64,000 nt of DNA, taken from NCBI RefSeq assembly GCF_044324785.1, contig NZ_CP172127.1; one strand, written 5' to 3'. Positions within the stretch are counted from its first letter, which is position 1. The number at the start of each line of letters is the position of its first letter. Both the position numbers and the translations under genes were made by a program. The notes under the pieces are model-generated. The model was not told where the DNA came from, searched no databases, and was given only the letters and a program-made list of their open reading frames with translations. Shown one piece after another: positions 7,189 through 22,831 of this stretch. The DNA is from Escherichia coli. GTDB lineage: Bacteria; Pseudomonadota; Gammaproteobacteria; Enterobacterales; Enterobacteriaceae.

Positions 7189-7683
7189 TTATGAACAACT
7201 GTCCATGATTTCGTTTAAGAATGAAGAGAAATCACTAAACGAACTGAATATATTTTCGGTGCCAATATTATCTCTAATTTCAAAAAAGTTACTTTTAATG
7301 TCATAAGTAAATATTGAAATGCTATCATCACCGATCACTAACCGTTCTTGTAGATCAGGGTTTATGAAATCATCATTATTTCTATAAAATTCATTTACGG
7401 CAAAAAGGTTTTTAACTGAAGGTTCTGGAATCGAGAGGCTAAATAATCGTAATCCATTAGCTTCGAATCCATCCATTGCTCTTAAAAAAGTAAGATAATC
7501 AGGTTGATTCTTAAAAAGAATACTAACTTCATTACATAACTTCTCCAGGCAATTAGTTGAATTAGAATTAAATTCTATTTGGATTATACTTTCAATAAAT
7601 GATTCCTTGAGCGGTGCTTCAAATGGATGGTCTAAATCATTCATCATTTTTTTTAATTTATTTATTTGGGTTTTAGTCATCAT
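7189..7683 (-). CDS. candidate immunity protein for the upstream Hcp-HNH effector (positional equivalent of yrhA)
   Basis: 164 aa acidic ORF, start ATGATGA-overlapped with yhhZ stop (translational coupling), AT-rich codon usage. Confidence 0.6.
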   Translation of the reverse strand: MMTKTQINKLKKMMNDLDHPFEAPLKESFIESIIQIEFNSNSTNCLEKLCNEVSILFKNQPDYLTFLRAMDGFEANGLRLFSLSIPEPSVKNLFAVNEFYRNNDDFINPDLQERLVIGDDSISIFTYDIKSNFFEIRDNIGTENIFSSFSDFSSFLNEIMDSCS

Positions 7684-8858
7684 TTTGTGGGTTCCATAAT
7701 ATTTTTCATGAGAGGATAAATTGAGCCAGATGGAATGGCCCAGGGAGTGATTTTGCTTTCACCTACTAATATTCCCTTAGCTATTCGTGATTGCATGTTA
7801 GTAAAAACTTTATGATATGGTTCGTTTTCGATTAATACTAAATTTTCGAAATCATTAGTACCACCATCATCTAGAGATAGTTTATGGTGAACATTATAAT
7901 TTAGAGGAACATTGCCCTTTCTCATTCTTAAAAGGTCTTCGGCGTTGAATCTTCCAGATGCTTCGGAGGTTTTTGCAAGTTTGATAAGAAAATTTTTTCT
8001 TACAGTTTTATTAAACTCCTTTCGTAAGTTAGCTAAGTCTTTTGAAGGTCTCTTAATGTATATTATTTCTATTATGTCTATACCATCAAGAAGTTTTTGT
8101 TGACCTCTAAGTTTGCCTAAGTAACTATTTATTTCTGTATATGTATCAACATTAGAACGCTTTGTTAAAAGAATAGATGCTGTTGCTATCGCTATGCCCG
8201 CTGTTTTTTCATTTAGTATTTGATCATAGCCTTTGATTGCATCTCCACCCAGTTTTTCCGCAGTATCTCTGAATCCTTCAATGTTCCCATTGTATACGCC
8301 ACCAGCAGCAAGTAGCCTGCCAACAGCTTCGCTGTTTAACGTTTTTAAACCATTATTTGTTTTGTTTTTTGAATTTGGTAAAAACAAGCGGTTATAATTT
8401 TCAGGGAGTGCCAAATAGCTGAACTCGGTGTTAGTGATAAGATGTTGGCAGAGGATAAATTCATAACTAACAGTTATTGTTTCTGTATCCAGCTGGTTTT
8501 CAATGATCTGGTGATGAATAGCCGATAAAAAAGCGCCTCTTAGTTGTATATAATAATACTTTTCCCATCTACCAAATCTATTTATTCGATAGAAGTCAAA
8601 TCCCATAAATAATTGTTCATTATTGTTAATGGAATTAATAAATAATGGAGTGCTTTTATCAATTAATTTACAAAATGTTATACCATGGAACTGTGAACCA
8701 AGCCCCGTATTAGAAATACTATTTAAGAGTGAGAATGTAAATATTTCATTCTCATGCCCGCTCTGCCAGCGATTACCTATAGATTCAGTAGTCCCACAAC
8801 CTGCGGAGATGCTTCCTTGTTGTTCTCCCGTTACTGTCAGATAAATAATATTACTCAT
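7680..8858 (-). CDS. yhhZ: Hcp-domain protein with C-terminal HNH nuclease extension (orphan T6SS Hcp-effector)
   Basis: 392 aa; N-terminal Hcp-like region; C-terminal NYNVHHKLSLDDGGTNDFENLVLIENEPYHKV HNH-type motif; very AT-rich. Confidence 0.8.
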   Translation of the reverse strand: MSNIIYLTVTGEQQGSISAGCGTTESIGNRWQSGHENEIFTFSLLNSISNTGLGSQFHGITFCKLIDKSTPLFINSINNNEQLFMGFDFYRINRFGRWEKYYYIQLRGAFLSAIHHQIIENQLDTETITVSYEFILCQHLITNTEFSYLALPENYNRLFLPNSKNKTNNGLKTLNSEAVGRLLAAGGVYNGNIEGFRDTAEKLGGDAIKGYDQILNEKTAGIAIATASILLTKRSNVDTYTEINSYLGKLRGQQKLLDGIDIIEIIYIKRPSKDLANLRKEFNKTVRKNFLIKLAKTSEASGRFNAEDLLRMRKGNVPLNYNVHHKLSLDDGGTNDFENLVLIENEPYHKVFTNMQSRIAKGILVGESKITPWAIPSGSIYPLMKNIMEPTK

Positions 8859-9703: not shown

Positions 9704-9797
9704 GCGATCAGGAAGACCCTCGCGGAGAACCTGAAAGCACGACATTGCTCACATTGCTTCCAGTATTACTTAGCCAGCCGGGTGCTGGCTTTTTTTT
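9704..9797 (+). ncRNA. ryhB: RyhB iron-responsive small RNA
   Basis: gcgatcaggaagaccctcgcggagaacctgaaagcacgacattgctcacattgcttccagtattacttagccagccgggtgctggcttttttttt matches RyhB as I recall it, with terminator hairpin plus T-run. Confidence 0.92.
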
Positions 9798-11993: not shown

Positions 11994-12989
11994 ATGAAAA
12001 AGAAAAGACCCGTACTTCAGGATGTGGCTGACCGTGTAGGCGTGACCAAAATGACGGTCAGCCGCTTTTTGCGTAACCCGGAGCAGGTTTCCGTCGCTCT
12101 ACGCGGCAAGATTGCCGCCGCTCTTGATGAACTGGGTTATATTCCCAATCGCGCGCCCGATATCCTCTCTAACGCCACCAGCCGGGCGATTGGCGTCCTG
12201 TTACCTTCTCTCACCAACCAGGTTTTCGCGGAAGTATTACGCGGAATCGAAAGCGTCACCGACGCGCACGGTTATCAGACCATGCTGGCCCACTACGGTT
12301 ATAAACCGGAAATGGAGCAAGAACGCCTCGAATCAATGCTCTCATGGAATATCGACGGACTGATCCTCACCGAACGTACCCACACGCCGCGCACCTTAAA
12401 GATGATTGAAGTGGCGGGGATTCCGGTGGTGGAACTGATGGACAGCAAGTCGCCGTGCCTCGATATTGCCGTCGGTTTTGATAACTTTGAAGCGGCACGC
12501 CAGATGACCACCGCCATTATTGCTCGCGGGCATCGCCACATTGCCTATCTCGGCGCACGTCTCGACGAACGTACTATCATCAAACAGAAGGGATACGAAC
12601 AGGCGATGCTGGATGCAGGCCTGGTGCCATATAGCGTGATGGTTGAGCAATCTTCTTCTTACTCTTCCGGTATTGAACTGATTCGCCAGGCGCGGCGGGA
12701 ATATCCGCAGCTGGATGGCGTGTTCTGTACTAATGATGACCTGGCGGTCGGCGCGGCGTTTGAATGCCAGCGTCTGGGGTTGAAAGTTCCTGACGATATG
12801 GCGATTGCCGGTTTCCATGGTCATGACATTGGTCAGGTGATGGAACCACGGTTGGCGAGCGTACTGACGCCGCGTGAGCGGATGGGCAGTATTGGCGCTG
12901 AACGCCTGCTGGCGCGTATTCGTGGCGAATCTGTGACACCGAAAATGTTAGATTTAGGTTTCACCTTGTCACCGGGCGGATCTATTTAA
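11994..12989 (+). CDS. gntR: LacI-family gluconate repressor
   Basis: 331 aa, N-terminal HTH VTKMTVSRFL, periplasmic-binding-fold body. Confidence 0.9.
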   Translation: MKKKRPVLQDVADRVGVTKMTVSRFLRNPEQVSVALRGKIAAALDELGYIPNRAPDILSNATSRAIGVLLPSLTNQVFAEVLRGIESVTDAHGYQTMLAHYGYKPEMEQERLESMLSWNIDGLILTERTHTPRTLKMIEVAGIPVVELMDSKSPCLDIAVGFDNFEAARQMTTAIIARGHRHIAYLGARLDERTIIKQKGYEQAMLDAGLVPYSVMVEQSSSYSSGIELIRQARREYPQLDGVFCTNDDLAVGAAFECQRLGLKVPDDMAIAGFHGHDIGQVMEPRLASVLTPRERMGSIGAERLLARIRGESVTPKMLDLGFTLSPGGSI

Positions 12990-13659: not shown

Positions 13660-15000
13660 GTGACTACATTAACGCTTGTTTTAACAGCAGTAGGGTCTGT
13701 TTTACTGCTGCTGTTTTTAGTCATGAAGGCGCGTATGCACGCTTTCCTGGCTTTGATGGTGGTGTCCATGGGGGCTGGCCTTTTTTCCGGTATGCCGCTC
13801 GATAAAATCGCAGCGACGATGGAAAAAGGGATGGGAGGCACCCTCGGCTTTCTGGCGGTGGTTGTCGCCCTGGGAGCCATGTTTGGCAAGATCTTACATG
13901 AAACCGGCGCAGTCGATCAGATTGCCGTCAAAATGCTCAAATCCTTCGGTCACAGCCGCGCGCATTATGCCATCGGCCTTGCGGGGCTGGTCTGTGCGCT
14001 GCCGTTGTTCTTTGAAGTGGCGATTGTTCTGCTGATTAGCGTTGCTTTCTCAATGGCGCGCCACACCGGTACGAACCTGGTGAAGCTGGTAATCCCATTA
14101 TTCGCAGGCGTGGCGGCAGCGGCTGCGTTCCTGGTGCCGGGGCCTGCGCCAATGCTGCTGGCATCGCAGATGAACGCCGACTTTGGCTGGATGATCCTGA
14201 TTGGCCTGTGTGCGGCAATTCCGGGAATGATTATTGCCGGGCCGCTGTGGGGTAATTTCATCAGCCGCTACGTGGAGTTGCATATTCCTGACGACATCAG
14301 CGAACCACATCTCGGTGAAGGCAAAATGCCGTCCTTCGGATTCAGCCTGTCGCTGATCCTGTTGCCACTGGTGCTGGTGGGGCTGAAAACCATTGCCGCG
14401 CGCTTTGTGCCGGAAGGCTCTACCGCTTACGAATGGTTCGAGTTTATTGGTCATCCGTTTACCGCGATTCTGGTTGCTTGTCTGGTAGCAATTTATGGCC
14501 TGGCAATGCGTCAGGGTATGCCAAAAGACAAAGTGATGGAAATTTGTGGTCACGCGCTGCAACCGGCGGGGATCATTCTGCTGGTGATTGGTGCAGGCGG
14601 CGTGTTCAAACAGGTGCTGGTTGACTCTGGCGTAGGTCCGGCACTGGGCGAAGCGTTAACCGGCATGGGCCTGCCGATTGCCATCACCTGCTTCGTGCTG
14701 GCAGCTGCAGTGCGCATCATTCAGGGTTCTGCCACCGTTGCCTGTTTAACGGCGGTGGGACTGGTGATGCCGGTTATTGAACAACTGAACTATTCCGGAG
14801 CGCAAATGGCGGCGCTGTCGATTTGTATCGCCGGTGGTTCGATTGTTGTCAGCCACGTTAACGACGCCGGTTTCTGGTTGTTCGGTAAATTTACCGGCGC
14901 GACTGAAGCCGAAACACTGAAAACCTGGACCATGATGGAAACCATCCTCGGCACTGTCGGTGCTATCGTTGGGATGATTGCGTTCCAACTGTTGAGTTAA
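13660..15000 (+). CDS. gntU: low-affinity gluconate:H+ symporter
   Basis: 446 aa GntP-family permease; GTG start 3 bp after gntK stop. Confidence 0.88.
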   Translation: MTTLTLVLTAVGSVLLLLFLVMKARMHAFLALMVVSMGAGLFSGMPLDKIAATMEKGMGGTLGFLAVVVALGAMFGKILHETGAVDQIAVKMLKSFGHSRAHYAIGLAGLVCALPLFFEVAIVLLISVAFSMARHTGTNLVKLVIPLFAGVAAAAAFLVPGPAPMLLASQMNADFGWMILIGLCAAIPGMIIAGPLWGNFISRYVELHIPDDISEPHLGEGKMPSFGFSLSLILLPLVLVGLKTIAARFVPEGSTAYEWFEFIGHPFTAILVACLVAIYGLAMRQGMPKDKVMEICGHALQPAGIILLVIGAGGVFKQVLVDSGVGPALGEALTGMGLPIAITCFVLAAAVRIIQGSATVACLTAVGLVMPVIEQLNYSGAQMAALSICIAGGSIVVSHVNDAGFWLFGKFTGATEAETLKTWTMMETILGTVGAIVGMIAFQLLS

Positions 15001-15012
15001 TTACTGCGACAA

Positions 15013-15038
15013 ATTACTGCGAGCTTGCTCGCAGTAAT
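15013..15038 (+). terminator. gntU terminator hairpin
   Basis: attactgcgagc-tt-gctcgcagtaat palindrome followed by T-rich tract; preceded by a direct copy ttactgcga. Confidence 0.6.
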
Positions 15039-15139
15039 TCATTTCTCTTTTCTCCTGTCTTCATCTTTTTGATCTCTCTCGCAAATTTACCTGCTAATAA
15101 TCCGTTCTAATCACTGCCTAAAGATCGCAGGAGATAAAG

Positions 15140-17236
15140 ATGGAAAAGCACGGAGCTGAATTGCTTTTACAGCGGATGTTAGGAAATACCACCGCTACTT
15201 TCAGGGAAGGGCAATGGGAAGCCATAGATGCAGTGGTTAATCAGCGGCGAAAACTGCTGGTTGTACAGCGCACCGGCTGGGGGAAAAGTGCCGTGTACTT
15301 CATCGCCAGTAAAATCTTCCGAGATCGCGGCGCTGGCCCGACAATTATCATCTCTCCTTTGCTTGCCCTGATGCGTAACCAGGTTGCCGCCGCTGAACGG
15401 TTAGGTATTACGGCTGAAACGTTGAATTCTACAAACAGGGAAGAATGGCAGCGCATTAGCGATAAGTTGCTGCAAGGTGAGGTCGATTGCTTGCTGGTTT
15501 CCCCGGAACGATTGGCAAACCAGGACTTTATCGAAACGGTTTTATATCCTATAGCCGATCGTATTGGCTTGCTTGTGGTCGACGAGGCGCACTGCATCTC
15601 TGATTGGGGCCACGATTTTCGCCCGGATTACCGACGTATATTAGATATTTTGCGCCAACTGCCTGCGAATACCCCTGTTCTGGGTACAACCGCGACAGCG
15701 AATAACCGTGTTGTTGAGGATATCCGTCAGCAATTGGGTGACATTGTGATTCAGCGTGGAACGCTGGCTCGCGAAAGTTTGGCGCTTGATGCCTTAGTCT
15801 TAGGAGAACAGTCATCCCGTCTGGCATGGTTAGCAACGGTTATCCCTCAGTTTTCCAAATCGGGAATTGTTTATACCCTGACGACTCGCGATGCTGAACT
15901 TGTCGCCGAGTGGTTAAGGAAAAATGGTATCAGTGCATTTGCTTACTACAGCGGCGTGACTTGTGAAGGCGCGGAAGATTCTAATACTGCCAGGGAATAT
16001 CTGGAGCAGGCACTGCTGGCAAATAAAATCAAAGTGCTGGTCGCGACGACGGCATTAGGTATGGGGTTTGATAAACCTGATTTAGGTTTCGTCATTCATT
16101 ATCAGATGCCGGGGTCTATTGTCGGTTACTACCAACAGGTGGGGCGTGCCGGTCGTGCTATAGATTCCGCAGTTGGCATATTGCTTTGTGGTGGTGAAGA
16201 CCGCGCTATTCATCAATTCTTCCGTGAAAGCGCCTTTCCTGCGGAGGCGCAAATTCATGAAATACTCAACGTACTTAGCGAGAATGACGGTCTTACCCTA
16301 CGAGGCATTGAACAACGGACGAATCTTCGTTATGGGCAAATAGAAAAAGCACTGAAATTATTGGTAGCGGAAAATCCATCGCCTGTGGTGTATACCGAGA
16401 AATTATGGCGCAGAACTATCGTCAGTTTTTCTCCTGATCATGAACGAATTAACCATTTGATGAATCAGAGAAAAAGTGAGCTGGCAGACGTTGAAAGCTA
16501 TATCACGACCAAGGAGTGCAAAATGCAATTTCTGCGCCGTGCACTCGATGAGCCAAGTGCCGAACGTTGTGGTAAATGTAGCAGTTGTCTTCAGCATCCG
16601 TTATTGTCGCCCGACATTGATAGCGGCTTACTCCATGCGGCAAATTTATTTATTAAACACGCTGACCTGCCGTTAAATCTCAATAAACAGGTGGCAGCTG
16701 GGGCTTTTACGCAATACGGATTTAAAGGGAACTTGCCTGCGGGTTTACAAGGATCTACGGGGCGAATCCTTTCTCGTTGGGGAGATTCCGGGTGGGGAAA
16801 GCAGGTAGCACAGGAGAAAAAAACGGGGCGCTTCAGTGATGAGCTGGTAGAAGCATGTGCGGAAATGGTTCGCCAACGCTGGAATCCGCATCCTGAACCA
16901 ACCTGGGTATGCTGCGTTCCTTCATTAAGGCACCTCGACCTGGTTCCTGATTTTGCCCGGCGACTGGCGGCGAAACTTGGCTTACCTTTTATTGATGCCA
17001 TTGAAAAAGTCGTGGACAATCCACCGCAGAAAATGCAGCAAAACCGTTTTCACCAGTGTCAAAATCTCGACGGGGCGTTTGTGATTACCCCTCCTTTGAT
17101 GCCAGGTCCGGCGTTGCTGGTTGACGATATCGTGGATTCTGCATGGACGCTGACAGTTCTGACAGCACTGTTACGCCAGGCAGGTTGCCCGACGGTTTAT
17201 CCTCTTGCCCTTGCTTCTACCTCGGTAAAAAATTGA
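15140..17236 (+). CDS. RecQ-family DNA helicase fused to a C-terminal ComF-like phosphoribosyltransferase (PRTase) domain
   Basis: 698 aa; FREGQ motif 0, Walker A TGWGKS, DEAHCISDWGHDFRPDY, ATTALGMGFDKPD, QQVGRAGR, Cys cluster CK..CGKCSSC; C-terminal ...NLDGAFVIT...ALLVDDIVDSAWT aligns with ComF/GntX PRTase fold; good SD aggag upstream. Confidence 0.85.
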   Translation: MEKHGAELLLQRMLGNTTATFREGQWEAIDAVVNQRRKLLVVQRTGWGKSAVYFIASKIFRDRGAGPTIIISPLLALMRNQVAAAERLGITAETLNSTNREEWQRISDKLLQGEVDCLLVSPERLANQDFIETVLYPIADRIGLLVVDEAHCISDWGHDFRPDYRRILDILRQLPANTPVLGTTATANNRVVEDIRQQLGDIVIQRGTLARESLALDALVLGEQSSRLAWLATVIPQFSKSGIVYTLTTRDAELVAEWLRKNGISAFAYYSGVTCEGAEDSNTAREYLEQALLANKIKVLVATTALGMGFDKPDLGFVIHYQMPGSIVGYYQQVGRAGRAIDSAVGILLCGGEDRAIHQFFRESAFPAEAQIHEILNVLSENDGLTLRGIEQRTNLRYGQIEKALKLLVAENPSPVVYTEKLWRRTIVSFSPDHERINHLMNQRKSELADVESYITTKECKMQFLRRALDEPSAERCGKCSSCLQHPLLSPDIDSGLLHAANLFIKHADLPLNLNKQVAAGAFTQYGFKGNLPAGLQGSTGRILSRWGDSGWGKQVAQEKKTGRFSDELVEACAEMVRQRWNPHPEPTWVCCVPSLRHLDLVPDFARRLAAKLGLPFIDAIEKVVDNPPQKMQQNRFHQCQNLDGAFVITPPLMPGPALLVDDIVDSAWTLTVLTALLRQAGCPTVYPLALASTSVKN

Positions 17237-18438
17237 TGAATCTTTCAGCCAATGCACAAGCGACTCTCCTGCTAACCAGCGATTTTTCTCGCGCGGCGGC
17301 GAGTGAGTATAAACCTCTTAGTAATAGTGAATGGGGGAAGTTTGCATTATGGCTGAAGCACCAACGTATCAGTCCCGCCGATCTTCTGGTACCGCAACCG
17401 CAAGAGAAACTTACAGGCTGGAGCGATCCGCGTATTTCTCAGGAGCGTATTCTTGGCTTGCTGGCGCGTGGTCATAGTCTGGCGTTGGCGGTAGATAAGT
17501 GGCAACGCGCCGGATTATGGATCTTAACCCGCGGAGATGCCGATTATCCCGTTCGCTTGAAAAACCGATTGCGAACGGATGCTCCTCCCGTTTTATTTGG
17601 CTGCGGGAATAAAGCATTATTGCAAGCGGAAGGTATGGCGATTGTTGGCTCGCGAGATGCTCCGACTGACGATTTGCGCTATACCCAACAACTGGCAGCG
17701 AAACTGGCCCAACAGGGGATTTGCGTTATCTCTGGTGGTGCGCGAGGTATTGATGAATGTGCAATGGCGTCGGCACTGGAGGCCGGGGGAACTGCCGTTG
17801 GCGTATTAGCTGATAGCTTGTTAAAAACGAGCACGTTAGTGAAATGGCGTGAAGGGCTTATAGCAGGCAACCTGGTGTTGATTTCACCGTTTTACCCAGA
17901 GGTACGTTTCACTGTCGGCAATGCGATGGCGCGGAATAAATATATTTATTGCCTTGCTGAAAGCGCAATGGTTGTACGTGCGGGAATGACCGGTGGAACG
18001 ATAACCGGAGCGATGGAGGCGTTAAAACATCAGTGGCTGCCTGTTCTGGTTAAACCAAATCAGGATGTGCAATCAGCCAATTCACGATTAGTAGAAAATG
18101 GGGCGTCATGGAGTGCTGAACAGGCTGAGAATGTGACGATCAGACTGCCAGATGTTCCTGGGCTGATGTATGACAGAGCACTCCGTAACGCTCAACCAGA
18201 ATTGTTTTCGCTGCTCGAAGATGACGCAAATTACGCAGTAATGCCCGCGCATACCCCTGTCGATTTTTATCAACTCTTTGTGGCGGAACTGGCGATCCTT
18301 GCAAAGGAATCGATAAGTATTGAAAGGCTGGCGTCTTGTACTGGTTTAACCATCGAACAAATTAGTGTGTGGCTGAACCGCGCAGAAGAAGAGGGAAGGG
18401 TTATCCGATTGGGCGAAGGTCATTATCAGTTCAGGTAA
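17236..18438 (+). CDS. DprA/Smf-like DNA-processing protein paralogue
   Basis: 400 aa from MNLSANAQ; YPVRLKNRLRTDAPPVLFGCGN, IVGSRDAPTDDLRYTQQLAAKLAQQGICVISGGARGIDECAMASALEAGG Rossmann DprA core, C-terminal winged-helix-like tail; start shares 1 nt with the helicase stop (TGATG). Confidence 0.8.
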   Translation: MNLSANAQATLLLTSDFSRAAASEYKPLSNSEWGKFALWLKHQRISPADLLVPQPQEKLTGWSDPRISQERILGLLARGHSLALAVDKWQRAGLWILTRGDADYPVRLKNRLRTDAPPVLFGCGNKALLQAEGMAIVGSRDAPTDDLRYTQQLAAKLAQQGICVISGGARGIDECAMASALEAGGTAVGVLADSLLKTSTLVKWREGLIAGNLVLISPFYPEVRFTVGNAMARNKYIYCLAESAMVVRAGMTGGTITGAMEALKHQWLPVLVKPNQDVQSANSRLVENGASWSAEQAENVTIRLPDVPGLMYDRALRNAQPELFSLLEDDANYAVMPAHTPVDFYQLFVAELAILAKESISIERLASCTGLTIEQISVWLNRAEEEGRVIRLGEGHYQFR

Positions 18439-18440
18439 TA

Positions 18441-18478
18441 AAACAGGTGCCGCGTCTGGTTGTGTGCAGCACCTGTTT
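18441..18478 (-). terminator. yhgN terminator hairpin
   Basis: aaacaggtgc ... gcacctgttt 10-bp inverted repeat, T-run on minus strand. Confidence 0.55.
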
Positions 18479-18483
18479 GAACC

Positions 18484-19268: not shown

Positions 19269-20372
19269 ATGAAAAATGTTGGTTTTATCGGCTGGCGCGG
19301 TATGGTCGGCTCCGTTCTCATGCAACGCATGGTTGAAGAGCGCGACTTCGACGCCATTCGCCCTGTCTTCTTTTCTACTTCACAGCTTGGTCAGGCTGCG
19401 CCGTCTTTTGGCGGAACCACTGGCACACTTCAGGATGCCTTTGATCTGGAGGCGCTAAAGGCCCTCGATATCATTGTGACCTGTCAGGGCGGCGATTATA
19501 CCAACGAAATCTATCCAAAGCTTCGTGAAAGCGGATGGCAAGGTTACTGGATTGACGCAGCATCGTCTCTGCGCATGAAAGATGACGCCATCATCATTCT
19601 TGACCCCGTCAATCAGGACGTCATTACCGACGGATTAAATAATGGCATCAGGACTTTTGTTGGCGGTAACTGTACCGTAAGCCTGATGTTGATGTCGTTG
19701 GGTGGTTTATTCGCCAACGATCTTGTTGATTGGGTGTCCGTTGCAACCTACCAGGCCGCTTCCGGCGGTGGTGCGCGACATATGCGTGAGTTATTAACCC
19801 AGATGGGCCATCTGTATGGCCATGTGGCAGATGAACTCGCGACCCCGTCCTCTGCTATTCTCGATATCGAACGCAAAGTCACAACCTTAACCCGTAGCGG
19901 TGAGCTGCCGGTGGATAACTTTGGCGTGCCGCTGGCGGGTAGCCTGATTCCGTGGATCGACAAACAGCTCGATAACGGTCAGAGCCGCGAAGAGTGGAAA
20001 GGGCAGGCGGAAACCAACAAGATCCTCAACACATCTTCCGTAATTCCGGTAGATGGTTTATGTGTGCGTGTCGGGGCATTGCGCTGCCATAGCCAGGCAT
20101 TCACTATTAAATTGAAAAAAGATGTGTCTATTCCGACCGTGGAAGAACTGCTGGCTGCGCACAATCCGTGGGCGAAAGTCGTTCCGAACGATCGGGAAAT
20201 CACTATGCGTGAGCTAACCCCAGCTGCCGTTACCGGCACGCTGACCACGCCGGTAGGCCGTCTGCGTAAGCTGAATATGGGACCGGAGTTCCTGTCAGCC
20301 TTTACCGTGGGCGACCAGCTGCTGTGGGGGGCCGCGGAGCCGCTACGTCGGATGCTTCGTCAACTGGCGTAA
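19269..20372 (+). CDS. asd: aspartate-semialdehyde dehydrogenase
   Basis: 367 aa from [17 protein letters not shown]; upstream ATG 19209 is an extension. Confidence 0.92.
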
Positions 20373-20644
20373 TCTTTATTCATTAAATCTGGGGCGCGAT
20401 GCCGCCCCTGTTAGTGCGTAATACAGGAGTAAGCGCAGATGTTTCATGATTTACCGGGAGTTAAATAGAGCATTGGCTATTCTTTAAGGGTGGCTGAATA
20501 CATGAGTATTCACAGCCTTACCTGAAGTGAGGACGACGCAGAGAGGATGCACAGAGTGCTGCGCCGTTCAGGTCAAAAAAATGTCACAACCAGAAGTCAA
20601 AAATCCAGTTGGATGGGGTGACACAATAAAACAGGAAGACAAGC

Positions 20645-22831
20645 ATGTCCGATCGTATCGATAGAGACGTGATTAACGCGCTAATTGCAGGCCATTTTGC
20701 GGATCCTTTTTCCGTACTGGGGATGCATAAAACCACCGCGGGACTGGAAGTCCGTGCCCTTTTACCCGACGCTACCGATGTGTGGGTGATTGAACCGAAA
20801 ACCGGGCGCAAACTCGCAAAACTGGAGTGTCTCGACTCCCGTGGATTCTTTAGCGGTGTCATTCCGCGACGTAAGAATTTTTTCCGCTATCAGTTGGCTG
20901 TTGTCTGGCATGGTCAGCAAAACCTGATAGATGATCCTTACCGTTTTGGTCCGCTAATCCAGGAAATGGATGCCTGGCTATTATCTGAAGGTACTCACCT
21001 GCGCCCGTATGAAACCTTAGGCGCGCATGCAGATACTATGGATGGCGTCACAGGTACGCGTTTTTCTGTCTGGGCTCCAAACGCCCGTCGGGTCTCGGTG
21101 GTTGGGCAATTCAACTACTGGGACGGTCGCCGTCATCCGATGCGCCTGCGTAAAGAGAGCGGCATCTGGGAACTGTTTATCCCTGGGGCGCATAACGGTC
21201 AGCTCTATAAATATGAGATGATTGATGCCAATGGCAACTTGCGTCTGAAGTCCGACCCTTATGCCTTCGAAGCGCAAATGCGCCCGGAAACCGCGTCTCT
21301 TATTTGCGGGCTGCCGGAAAAGGTTGTGCAGACTGAAGAGCGCAAAAAAGCGAATCAGTTTGATGCGCCAATCTCTATTTATGAAGTTCACCTGGGCTCC
21401 TGGCGTCGCCACACCGACAACAATTTCTGGTTAAGCTACCGCGAGCTGGCCGATCAACTGGTGCCTTATGCTAAATGGATGGGCTTTACCCACCTCGAAC
21501 TGCTGCCCATTAACGAGCATCCGTTCGATGGCAGTTGGGGTTATCAGCCAACCGGCCTGTATGCACCGACCCGCCGTTTTGGTACCCGCGACGACTTCCG
21601 TTATTTCATTGATGCCGCACACGCAGCTGGTCTGAACGTGATTCTCGACTGGGTGCCAGGCCACTTCCCGACCGATGACTTTGCGCTTGCCAAATTTGAT
21701 GGCACGAACTTGTATGAACACAGCGATCCGCGCGAAGGCTATCATCAGGACTGGAATACGCTGATCTACAACTATGGTCGCCGTGAAGTCAGTAACTTCC
21801 TTGTCGGTAACGCGCTTTACTGGATCGAACGTTTTGGTATTGATGCGCTGCGCGTCGATGCGGTGGCGTCAATGATTTATCGTGACTACAGCCGTAAAGA
21901 GGGGGAGTGGATCCCGAACGAATTTGGCGGGCGCGAGAATCTTGAAGCGATTGAATTCTTGCGTAATACCAACCGTATTCTTGGTGAGCAGGTTTCCGGT
22001 GCGGTGACAATGGCGGAGGAGTCTACCGATTTCCCTGGCGTTTCTCGTCCGCAGGACATGGGCGGTCTGGGCTTCTGGTACAAGTGGAACCTAGGCTGGA
22101 TGCATGACACCCTGGACTACATGAAGCTCGACCCGGTTTATCGTCAGTATCATCACGATAAACTGACCTTCGGGATGCTCTACAACTACACTGAAAACTT
22201 CGTCCTGCCGTTGTCGCATGATGAAGTGGTCCACGGTAAAAAATCGATTCTCGACCGGATGCCGGGCGACGCATGGCAGAAATTCGCTAACCTGCGCGCC
22301 TACTACGGCTGGATGTGGGCATTCCCGGGCAAGAAACTGCTGTTCATGGGGAACGAATTTGCCCAGGGCCGCGAGTGGAACCATGACGCCAGCCTCGACT
22401 GGCATCTGTTGGAAGGCGGCGATAACTGGCACCACGGTGTCCAGCGTCTGGTGCGCGATCTGAACCTCACCTACCGCCACCATAAAGCGATGCATGAACT
22501 GGATTTTGACCCGTACGGTTTTGAATGGCTGGTGGTGGATGACAAAGAACGCTCGGTGCTGATCTTTGTGCGTCGCGATAAAGAGGGTAACGAAATCATC
22601 GTTGCCAGTAACTTTACTCCGGTGCCGCGTCATGATTATCGCTTCGGCATTAACCAGCCGGGCAAATGGCGTGAAATCCTCAATACCGATTCCATGCACT
22701 ATCACGGCAGTAATGTCGGCAATGGCGGCACGGTACACAGCGATGAGATTGCCAGCCACGGTCGTCAGCATTCATTAAGCCTGACACTACCACCGCTGGC
22801 CACTATCTGGCTGGTTCGGGAGGCAGAATGA
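20645..22831 (+). CDS. glgB: 1,4-alpha-glucan branching enzyme
   Basis: 728 aa, GH13 motifs. Confidence 0.93.

Follow-up and report, generated by a model that had tools for sequence, protein, structure and literature searches.

What does a protein of the DprA family do when its gene lies directly behind one encoding a toxic helicase-PRTase protein? The question is raised by a gene, on the plus strand between gntU and yhgN, in the 64,000-nucleotide stretch of Escherichia coli DNA analysed here (the window; NCBI RefSeq assembly GCF_044324785.1, contig NZ_CP172127.1), the product of which RefSeq names 'DNA-processing protein DprA'. A preliminary description interpreted the gene as an accessory paralogue of DprA, coupled to the helicase gene and suggestive of ssDNA sensing or processing of foreign DNA; the first two elements stand and the third is putative, but the description missed both the antitoxin role and the named, published system. 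With high confidence, we identify positions 17236-18438 as rqlI (psyrA), the antitoxin gene of the toxin-antitoxin and anti-phage module RqlHI/PsyrTA; its product is DprA-like, and the toxin, RqlH/PsyrT, is encoded at 15140-17236. The pair is already known, being an allele of the RqlH-RqlI locus described in the ExPEC strain F11 (Russell & Mulvey 2015, PLoS Pathog 11:e1005317; PMC4670107), for which PsyrT-PsyrA is an alternative name (Sberro 2013; Millman 2022). The features of the locus are as follows.

15001-15139, plus strand: left end of the insert, with the terminator-like hairpin of gntU (15012-15039) and then a leader of about 100 nt for rqlH, running to AGGAGATAAAG-ATG.
15140-17236, plus strand: rqlH (psyrT), 698-aa toxin, assigned from PADLOC PsyrT, NCBIfam recQ_fam, Pfam and active-site residues.
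17234-17238, plus strand: TGATG junction, read from the sequence, in which the rqlH stop codon TGA and the rqlI start codon ATG have one base in common.
17236-18438, plus strand: rqlI (psyrA), 400-aa DprA-like antitoxin, assigned from PADLOC PsyrA and from Pfam DNA_processg_A and SLOG LDcluster4.
18441-18478, no strand assigned: 10-bp inverted repeat at the insert's right end, read from the sequence (AAACAGGTGC...GCACCTGTTT) and flanked by the convergent genes rqlI and yhgN.

Profile searches and comparison with the published locus both identify the pair. PADLOC model PDLC03927 (PsyrA) matches RqlI with an E-value of 6.3e-201 and 666 bits, aligning protein residues 1-400 with profile positions 1-397 of 398, and the PADLOC PsyrT model matches residues 3-697 of the upstream protein (E = 0); these matches, together with the inclusion of PsyrTA among the phage-defence systems of Millman 2022, place the pair in a conflict or defence system. 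The lengths of the two proteins (698 and 400 aa) are those of F11 RqlH and RqlI (PMC4670107), and K49 (Walker A), D148 (DEAH) and DIVD663 (PRPP-loop) of the toxin are intact at their published positions. RqlI shares 98% identity with a cluster of 3041 sequences from E. coli, and the locus has 97% nucleotide identity to those of CFT073 and Nissle 1917.

The open reading frame at 17236-18438 is real, its 400-aa translation including YPVRLKNRLRTDAPPVLFGCGN, IVGSRDAPTDD and VISGGARGIDECAMASALEAGG, and the helicase-PRTase frame ends at 17236, where the junction reads ...AAATTGATGAAT.... RefSeq/PGAP annotates instead the longest possible frame, 17143-18438, with a product of 431 aa. The start at 17143 was rejected, since its 31 additional codons lie inside rqlH and are unconserved; 17236 is the correct start because all of the aligned homologues (19/19) begin at the equivalent MN(L)S. 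Judged from the alignment, the RefSeq start codon of rqlI appears to be placed 31 codons too far upstream.

Given the product name, RqlI might be taken for a duplicate of housekeeping DprA/Smf that loads RecA onto incoming ssDNA for transformation or recombination, and the Pfam DNA_processg_A domain and a domain layout in three parts, as in long DprAs, are likewise in keeping with this. We nevertheless consider such a duplicate extremely improbable. RqlI falls well short of the cut-off for either dprA equivalog (102.2 bits against 191.15 for the NCBIfam equivalog TIGR00732, and 80 bits against 495 for PRK10736), and its 32% identity to E. coli Smf covers 156 aa of the Rossmann core only. Canonical dprA is elsewhere, adjoining def/fmt in the closest genome, and the gntU-yhgN position of rqlI is not a def-fmt/dprA-smg-topA-like neighbourhood. 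Furthermore, the gene is missing from 70% of E. coli genomes, being present in only 1650 of 5426, has a toxin gene as partner in every locus, and its deletion is harmful only when rqlH is present (PMC4670107). The cut-off scores, the core-only identity and the separate canonical dprA effectively refute a housekeeping Smf, and the earlier designation of an accessory DprA-family paralogue is upheld.

An AlphaFold2 (AF2) model of RqlI (pLDDT 85.7), combined with Pfam, Foldseek and homologue alignments, divides the protein into the following segments.

17236-17508, plus strand: N-terminal domain (aa 1-91), helical and, by its position, SAM-like (AF2 helices, Foldseek, conservation).
17518-18135, plus strand: Rossmann (DprA/SLOG) core, aa 95-300 (Pfam, alignments, AF2).
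18148-18255, plus strand: low-confidence, length-variable linker, aa 305-340 (pLDDT below 50, homologue lengths).
18265-18435, plus strand: C-terminal winged-helix domain, aa 344-400 (AF2, three helices and a beta-hairpin, pLDDT about 90).

The three-domain DprA-family architecture suggested from the sequence is thus borne out by the Pfam core, the AF2 layout and Foldseek matches to full-length DprA. The Rossmann-like core matches Pfam DNA_processg_A (PF02481) over residues 89-292 with an E-value of 3.9e-50, far beyond chance, a SLOG LDcluster4 match covers residues 135-296, and the expected C-terminal winged helix is evident in the model at 344-400; the linker at 305-340 is disordered and differs in length by tens of residues among homologues. 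One detail required correction: the motif previously quoted as the N-terminal region (YP...PPVLFGCGN) opens the Rossmann/Pfam domain and lies outside the true N-terminal domain. The latter is highly conserved among family members and is placed like those of S. pneumoniae DprA and ShosA. The best Foldseek matches are 3MAJ (full-length DprA), 8ZVA (ShosA) and 3UQZ (S. pneumoniae DprA), E-values against DprA structures ranging from 1e-11 to 1e-18, and SpDprA and ShosA are aligned over about 300-320 columns, the Rossmann-only H. pylori chains over about 205-230.

Within the core, the principal motifs are G138-S139-R140, SGGARGID (166-173), R233-N234 and a loop and helix containing G253-G254-T255...E261. 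R140 and R233, both conserved in the family, align with R52 and R143 of H. pylori DprA (residue numbers from PMC12961424), and the position of H. pylori DprA R170 is occupied by M260, beside the family-invariant E261. With this third ssDNA-binding arginine replaced, DprA-style ssDNA binding may be altered in RqlI; the third arginine of ShosA is dispensable for antitoxin function (PMC12961424). RqlI truncations lacking aa 1-84 or 1-129, which also lacked the C-terminal HTH, lost antitoxin function, and a construct comprising residues 1-320 gave full rescue (PMC4670107), so the winged helix is dispensable for antitoxin activity.

The toxin RqlH consists of a RecQ-like SF2 helicase (approximately aa 20-355) and a C-terminal PRTase (approximately aa 509-698). 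It scores 252.8 bits against NCBIfam recQ_fam, above the cut-off of 219.8, and its Pfam matches are DEAD, Helicase_C, RecQ_Zn_bind (weak, 443-484) and Pribosyltran (weak, 605-683). DpdF models also match RqlH, and a truncated copy bears the RefSeq name 'ComF family protein'.

Published functional data refer to the ExPEC F11 orthologue, which is 97-98% identical, and functional claims on RqlHI derive from one 2015 study and from screens. In strain F11, rqlH and rqlI are co-transcribed, as determined by RT-PCR; RqlH alone leads to the SOS response, filamentation, mutagenesis and viability loss, this genotoxicity requires the PRPP-binding pocket of the PRTase (D663), and RqlI neutralises RqlH and co-immunoprecipitates with it in a manner that depends on the PRTase domain (PMC4670107). 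Consistent with an antitoxin, transformation with a psyrA deletion construct was not possible (Millman 2022). As regards phage defence, PsyrTA of E. coli NILS69 did not detectably protect K-12, in which it was expressed, against the phages tested, and phage defence by this E. coli allele is therefore only putative; a native-host NILS69 deletion mutant was also built, for which the available part of that report gives no PsyrTA phenotype (10.1101/2024.12.20.629700). Our literature search found structures and mechanism for ShosTA only, and no recent mechanistic paper on PsyrTA.

Neutralisation of a PRTase might also be achieved enzymatically, were RqlI a LOG-like phosphoribohydrolase that binds or hydrolyses the phosphoribosylated RqlH PRTase product in a SLOG/LOG-type pocket. 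This would agree with Fig 10 of PMC4670107, a model in which RqlI resolves the modified nucleotide. Besides the SLOG LDcluster4 match, Foldseek and phmmer find LOG, MoCo-carrier and PpnN proteins, E261 is invariant, and in a profile alignment the family consensus GAEENL resembles GTAEELL of PpnN. However, the DprA matches are far stronger than the LOG matches, and PpnN is aligned only weakly by hhalign (probability 9.7%). The LOG arginine position is unconserved in this weak alignment, in which RqlI also lacks the LOG/SLOG PGGxGTxxE motif with its catalytic Glu and upstream Arg. PpnN E264, which is mutated (E264A) in PDB 9hs3 and which we take to be the catalytic Glu, falls opposite M260, in a column that holds M, L, Q or E in relatives. 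The weakness of this local alignment and the presence of M260 at the E264 position lead us to disfavour a catalytic antitoxin of the LOG type, which we regard as very unlikely.

We turn next to how the pair is carried in the chromosome. Homology to K-12 extends as far as the gntU stop codon (15000) and no further, and an insert of 3483 bp (15001-18483) stands in place of the 56-bp gntU-yhgN spacer of K-12. Signatures of mobile-element insertion were sought and discounted, as the insert simply replaces the spacer, neither target duplications nor flanking repeats being present; the GC content, 49.3% compared with 51.7% for the window, is unremarkable. The leader carries the Shine-Dalgarno sequence of rqlH, AGGAGATAAAG, before the ATG. 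In a strict scan upstream of rqlH, only two sites matched a consensus sigma-70 promoter; both are on the minus strand and none is on the plus strand, and chance alone would give more. The inverted repeat at 18441-18478 is, from its sequence and position, probably a bidirectional terminator, but was not called by a strict terminator scan, the loop being too long. An Rfam scan of the window returned only RyhB (9733-9797) and nothing in or near the locus. Among 5424 E. coli genomes the gntU-yhgN site exists as just two alleles, occupied in 1650 and empty in 3774, on which grounds a variable defence hotspot at this position was rejected. The same site is also occupied in Citrobacter, Silvania and Klebsiella, and across four enterobacterial genera RqlI is far more diverged at this site than its flanks.

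The association with the toxin gene, in comparison, is invariable. The coupling to a helicase-PRTase gene that had been proposed for this locus proves obligate: every species-representative locus (80/80) has such a gene directly upstream in the same orientation, and a count of 9/9 was likewise obtained; in every one of the 51 loci with a scorable junction the stop and start codons lie within 4 nt of each other (4-nt overlap in 24, 1-nt overlap in 13, 1-nt spacer in 14). From this arrangement we infer that rqlI is translationally coupled to rqlH. In 14 of the 80 species-representative loci the pair is embedded in a type I R-M operon; these operons belong to a single mobile family, and the pair sits between their hsdS and hsdR genes. 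Relatives embedded in this way include loci from V. cholerae and Shewanella.

A mechanism can be proposed. The 1-nt overlap would tie synthesis of the antitoxin to that of the toxin; on phage infection RqlI would be titrated or lost, possibly through binding of phage ssDNA or replication intermediates in the retained DprA groove (R140, R233), or possibly through host expression shut-off; and infection would be aborted by the damage that the freed, helicase-guided PRTase inflicts on DNA or on nucleotide metabolism. By analogy with ShosA (PMC12961424), ssDNA sensing by RqlI is plausible. A more specific version, in which RqlI acts as an infection sensor that phage ssDNA strips from the RqlH PRTase, and in which the R-M-embedded pairs constitute a PrrC-like back-up, is put forward tentatively, and we think it rather unlikely to hold in full. 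According to this version, ssDNA or replication intermediates occupying the R140/R233 groove would displace RqlI and unleash the PRTase, and pairs between hsdS and hsdR would fire upon restriction evasion. Our literature search found no account of a phage trigger for RqlHI or of its wiring to R-M. By itself the locus adds little, the gene pair having been genetically characterised in 2015 and catalogued as PsyrTA in PADLOC and DefenseFinder; the two-allele polymorphism, the shared site, the tight junctions and the R-M embedding nonetheless provide a usable guide for experiments on trigger, substrate and ssDNA sensing.

Comparison with known systems places the locus closest to RqlH-RqlI of F11, with which it agrees in species, gene order, protein lengths and the positions of K49, D148 and D663, without substantive difference; it is an allele of the F11-type rqlHI locus (97-99.9% nucleotide identity), and its stop/start overlap is that reported for most rqlHI strains (PMC4670107). 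Canonical DprA/Smf proteins (3MAJ, 3UQZ, 4LJR) share with RqlI the DNA_processg_A core and the GSR and ARN motifs, and the long DprAs also share the helical N-domain, Rossmann fold and C-terminal winged helix. RqlI differs from them in falling below the equivalog cut-offs, in genomic context, in the replaced third arginine and in having GGTxxGAxE...WxPxWVKP where canonical DprA has SGSxxTAR...GRxVxAxPG; the demonstrated role of canonical DprA is RecA loading in natural transformation, and that of RqlI is toxin neutralisation. ComFA/ComFC and DpdF resemble RqlH in combining a helicase with a ComF-type PRTase; in contrast to these, RqlH unites both in one toxic polypeptide of the RecQ clade, and rqlHI has no competence or Dpd gene neighbourhood.

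ShosTA (8ZVA, 9VZO) is, like RqlHI, an anti-phage toxin-antitoxin module that pairs a PRTase-domain toxin with a DprA-fold antitoxin, and both ShosT and RqlH cause DNA damage and filamentation. ShosA, a dimer of SAM and DprA folds, binds ssDNA through R139 and R234 and interacts with RecA, not ShosT, an interaction disrupted by surplus ssDNA (PMC12961424; PMC11961720); RecA binding or loading on ssDNA has been shown for both ShosA and DprA (PMC12961424), and the RecA-contact residues of ShosA are K200 and R206. RqlI could work in the same type IV manner: instead of binding the toxin, it would act mainly as a RecA partner that binds ssDNA, repairs or prevents DNA damage induced by RqlH and detects ssDNA of phage origin. 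The match of RqlI to ShosA models and structures, with a helical N-domain and Rossmann core in both, and the retention of the two key arginines as R140 and R233 make this possible, though on balance doubtful: RqlI has lost the third arginine, its PADLOC score is 94.8 bits for ShosA compared with 666 for PsyrA, and, unlike ShosA with ShosT, it co-immunoprecipitates with its toxin, through the PRTase domain. A ShosA-like mode and direct inhibition of RqlH could also coexist. The two systems differ further in that ShosT has no helicase whereas RqlH has a RecQ-like one, in that ShosA lacks the C-terminal winged helix modelled by AF2 in RqlI, and in sequence, the similarity between ShosA and RqlI being weak, with a Foldseek identity of about 20%.

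The gene at 17236-18438 is the already known rqlI (psyrA), the antitoxin gene of the RqlHI (PsyrTA) pair. Its 400-residue translation carries all three strings quoted from it in the preliminary description, and it lies in the following gene order.

Gene order of the E. coli chromosome around rqlHI
11994-12989: gntR
between gntR and gntU: gntK
13660-15000: gntU
15140-17236, + strand: rqlH, 698-aa ORF
17236-18438, + strand: rqlI, 400 aa
18484-19077, - strand: yhgN
beyond yhgN: asd, then glgB, glgX and glgC

Elsewhere in the window, a low-GC (~39%) segment on the - strand (7189-8858) carries the gene of an Hcp/TssD-domain fusion of 392 aa, which is probably a T6SS Hcp-toxin of the yhhZ type; next comes a YrhA-family protein of 164 aa, probably its immunity partner. 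The small RNA RyhB (Rfam RF00057, 83 bits) lies at 9733-9797 (+), and a scan of the 64-kb window gave no other Rfam match at the gathering threshold.

Read in the sequence, the TGA of rqlH (17234-17236) and the ATG of rqlI (from 17236) overlap by 1 nt as TGATG. RefSeq/PGAP instead starts rqlI at the ATG at 17143, giving a longer in-frame ORF of 431 aa that overlaps rqlH by 94 nt. Since all 19 aligned homologues, from other genera, begin at MN(L)S, the position of 17236, the coordinates first proposed are correct; judged from this alignment, the annotated start probably lies 31 codons upstream of the true one (window 17143-17235). The protein is likewise 400 aa in the 2015 description of the system (PMC4670107), and an ORF scan of the gene found no competing opposite-strand ORF of 80 aa or more.

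In PADLOC, RqlI matches the PsyrA model over its whole length (E 6.3e-201), and the protein encoded upstream matches PsyrT (E = 0); the second match of RqlI is the distant ShosA (95 bits). RqlH contains DEAD and Helicase_C domains, with weak RecQ Zn-binding and PRTase matches, and exceeds the NCBIfam RecQ-family cut-off. Both proteins are identical in length to the E. coli pair of Russell & Mulvey 2015 (698 and 400 aa; PMC4670107), and the RqlH residues mutated in that study (K49, D148 and DIVD663) occur at exactly the published positions. There, rqlH and rqlI were co-transcribed; without RqlI, RqlH led to SOS induction, filamentation, mutagenesis and killing, a toxicity dependent on the PRPP pocket of its PRTase domain; and RqlI, the neutralising antitoxin, co-immunoprecipitated reciprocally with RqlH unless the PRTase domain (residues 509-698) was removed. 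Residues 1-320 of RqlI sufficed for function, and constructs without the first 84 or 129 residues, which also lacked the C-terminal HTH, were inactive. The P. syringae orthologues were named PsyrT and PsyrA by Sberro 2013, and Millman et al. 2022 placed PsyrTA among phage-resistance systems; their attempt to transform a psyrA deletion failed. PsyrTA of E. coli NILS69 protected against none of the tested phages to a detectable degree (10.1101/2024.12.20.629700).

RqlI was accurately described as a DprA-family paralogue of full length that ends in a winged helix. Residues 89-292 match Pfam DNA_processg_A (E 3.9e-50), a SLOG cluster-4 match overlaps this region, and an AlphaFold2 model built with 50 homologues as input (mean pLDDT 85.7) predicts the following architecture, the linker being delimited also from the homologue alignment.

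Predicted domains of RqlI
aa 1-91: helical N-domain
aa 95-300: Rossmann core
aa 305-340: disordered linker of variable length
aa 344-400: C-terminal winged helix, three helices and a beta-hairpin

The motif YP...PPVLFGCGN, previously assigned to the N-terminal region, instead opens the Rossmann domain. The best Foldseek matches were full-length R. palustris DprA (3MAJ), E. coli ShosA (8ZVA) and S. pneumoniae DprA (3UQZ), followed by the H. pylori DprA core and then, with much weaker scores, by MoCo-carrier and LOG proteins; these weaker matches explain the 'MoCo-binding domain' noted in 2015 (PMC4670107).

RqlI is not an Smf orthologue: it scores far below both NCBIfam dprA equivalog cut-offs (102 bits against 191, and 80 against 495), and in an alignment with Smf, reconstructed from the frameshifted dprA of E. 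coli strain N3, its only match covers 156 residues in the Rossmann core at 32% identity. Strain N3 is the closest complete genome (99.9% identity across the locus). Its canonical dprA/smf (L012, the N3 locus, 20036-21162) adjoins def/fmt and is annotated as frameshifted, which may reflect an assembly error or a genuine pseudogene; were the frameshift real, RqlI would be the sole intact DprA-family protein of that strain.

Pairing with the helicase-PRTase gene holds in all the relatives covered. A DEAD/Helicase_C(/PRTase) protein of ~700 aa is encoded upstream of rqlI in each of the nine loci retrieved by looking up the exact protein, and tblastn places an RqlH homologue directly upstream on the same strand in 80/80 loci from species representatives of a GTDB genome scan. 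In the 51 loci with a confidently placed start codon, the genes overlap by 4 nt in 24 and by 1 nt in 13, and are separated by a 1-nt spacer in 14; Fig 9 of the 2015 paper (PMC4670107) agrees with these results. Nine of the 1650 E. coli carriers fall below 80% coverage of the locus. In at least one E. coli genome (NZ_OZ501598.1), rqlI is kept and rqlH is reduced to its 3' (ComF/PRTase) part (53% coverage), which looks like a natural truncation of the toxin, similar to the IS-disrupted Shigella sonnei case reported in 2015 (PMC4670107).

Homology to K-12 ends at the gntU stop codon, and 3483 bp (15001-18483) here replace the 56-bp gntU-yhgN spacer of K-12 (1802-1857 of L002, the empty junction), with no target duplication evident on comparison with that junction. 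The pair occurs in 1650 of 5426 complete E. coli genomes, including CFT073, Nissle 1917 and O157:H7, always chromosomally and always at gntU|yhgN; the empty K-12-type junction occurs in 3774, together making up all 5424 genomes having the locus. No third allele or other cargo was found among these 5424, and with exactly two alleles the site is unlike the usual variable defence hotspot. The same site downstream of gntU holds rqlHI in Citrobacter werkmanii (L010), Silvania hatchlandensis (L013) and Klebsiella grimontii (L014). In the latter two, GntU shares 95-97% identity with its E. coli counterpart, whereas RqlI identity across the three is only 58-64%; the antitoxin has therefore diverged much faster than its flanks, a pattern that fits either a long stay at the site during which RqlI changed rapidly or a replacement of alleles via the conserved flanks.

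The system is still of interest for its mechanism and for its restriction-modification (R-M) context. The TGATG overlap would tie synthesis of RqlH and RqlI together, and infection might titrate or remove RqlI. The DprA paralogue abutting the helicase-PRTase gene, as first observed, is confirmed, and the interpretation given with it is partly supported. Sensing of ssDNA by RqlI is plausible by analogy, since R140 (GSR) and R233 (ARN) are conserved, equivalent to R52 and R143 of H. pylori DprA and R139 and R234 of ShosA, and since ShosA must bind ssDNA and RecA to neutralise ShosT, its interaction with RecA being disrupted by excess ssDNA (PMC12961424). However, ShosA does not bind ShosT (PMC12961424), unlike RqlI, which co-immunoprecipitates with its toxin, and the third DprA arginine (H. 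pylori R170; TAR in Smf) is M260 in E. coli RqlI (M260-E261, window 18013-18018), both of which weaken a simple transfer from ShosA. At this site the PsyrA family carries an acidic pair (consensus EE in GAEENL, with E261 invariant in family alignments A1 and A2) resembling the LOG motif GTAEELL, which could mark RqlI as a LOG-type hydrolase, i.e. an enzymatic antidote. Such a role is disfavoured for this protein, because a weak profile alignment with E. coli PpnN pairs M260 with E264, the position altered in PDB entry 9hs3, and this column is variable in the PsyrA family.

Among the 80 species representatives, 14 have rqlHI inside a type I R-M operon, flanked by hsdS and hsdR (gene order hsdM-hsdS-rqlH-rqlI-hsdR), and the nine look-up loci include three complete examples and one decayed; the hosts, distant relatives, include Marinobacter, Vibrio, Shewanella, Providencia, Chelonobacter, Alteromonas and Kluyvera, and HsdS remnants occur at four further loci.

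R-M-linked loci (numbers of the homologous loci fetched)
L003, L004, L006, L007 (decayed); L015, L017, L026, L027, L029, L031, L035, L038, L048-L051, L060, L062

The great likeness of HsdR across genera (~1800 bits by tblastn against three reference HsdR proteins), together with an adjacent integrase in two loci, suggests that these operons are one highly conserved, apparently mobile cassette. No description of rqlHI inside a type I R-M operon was found in the searchable literature; the arrangement recalls that of PrrC inside EcoprrI.
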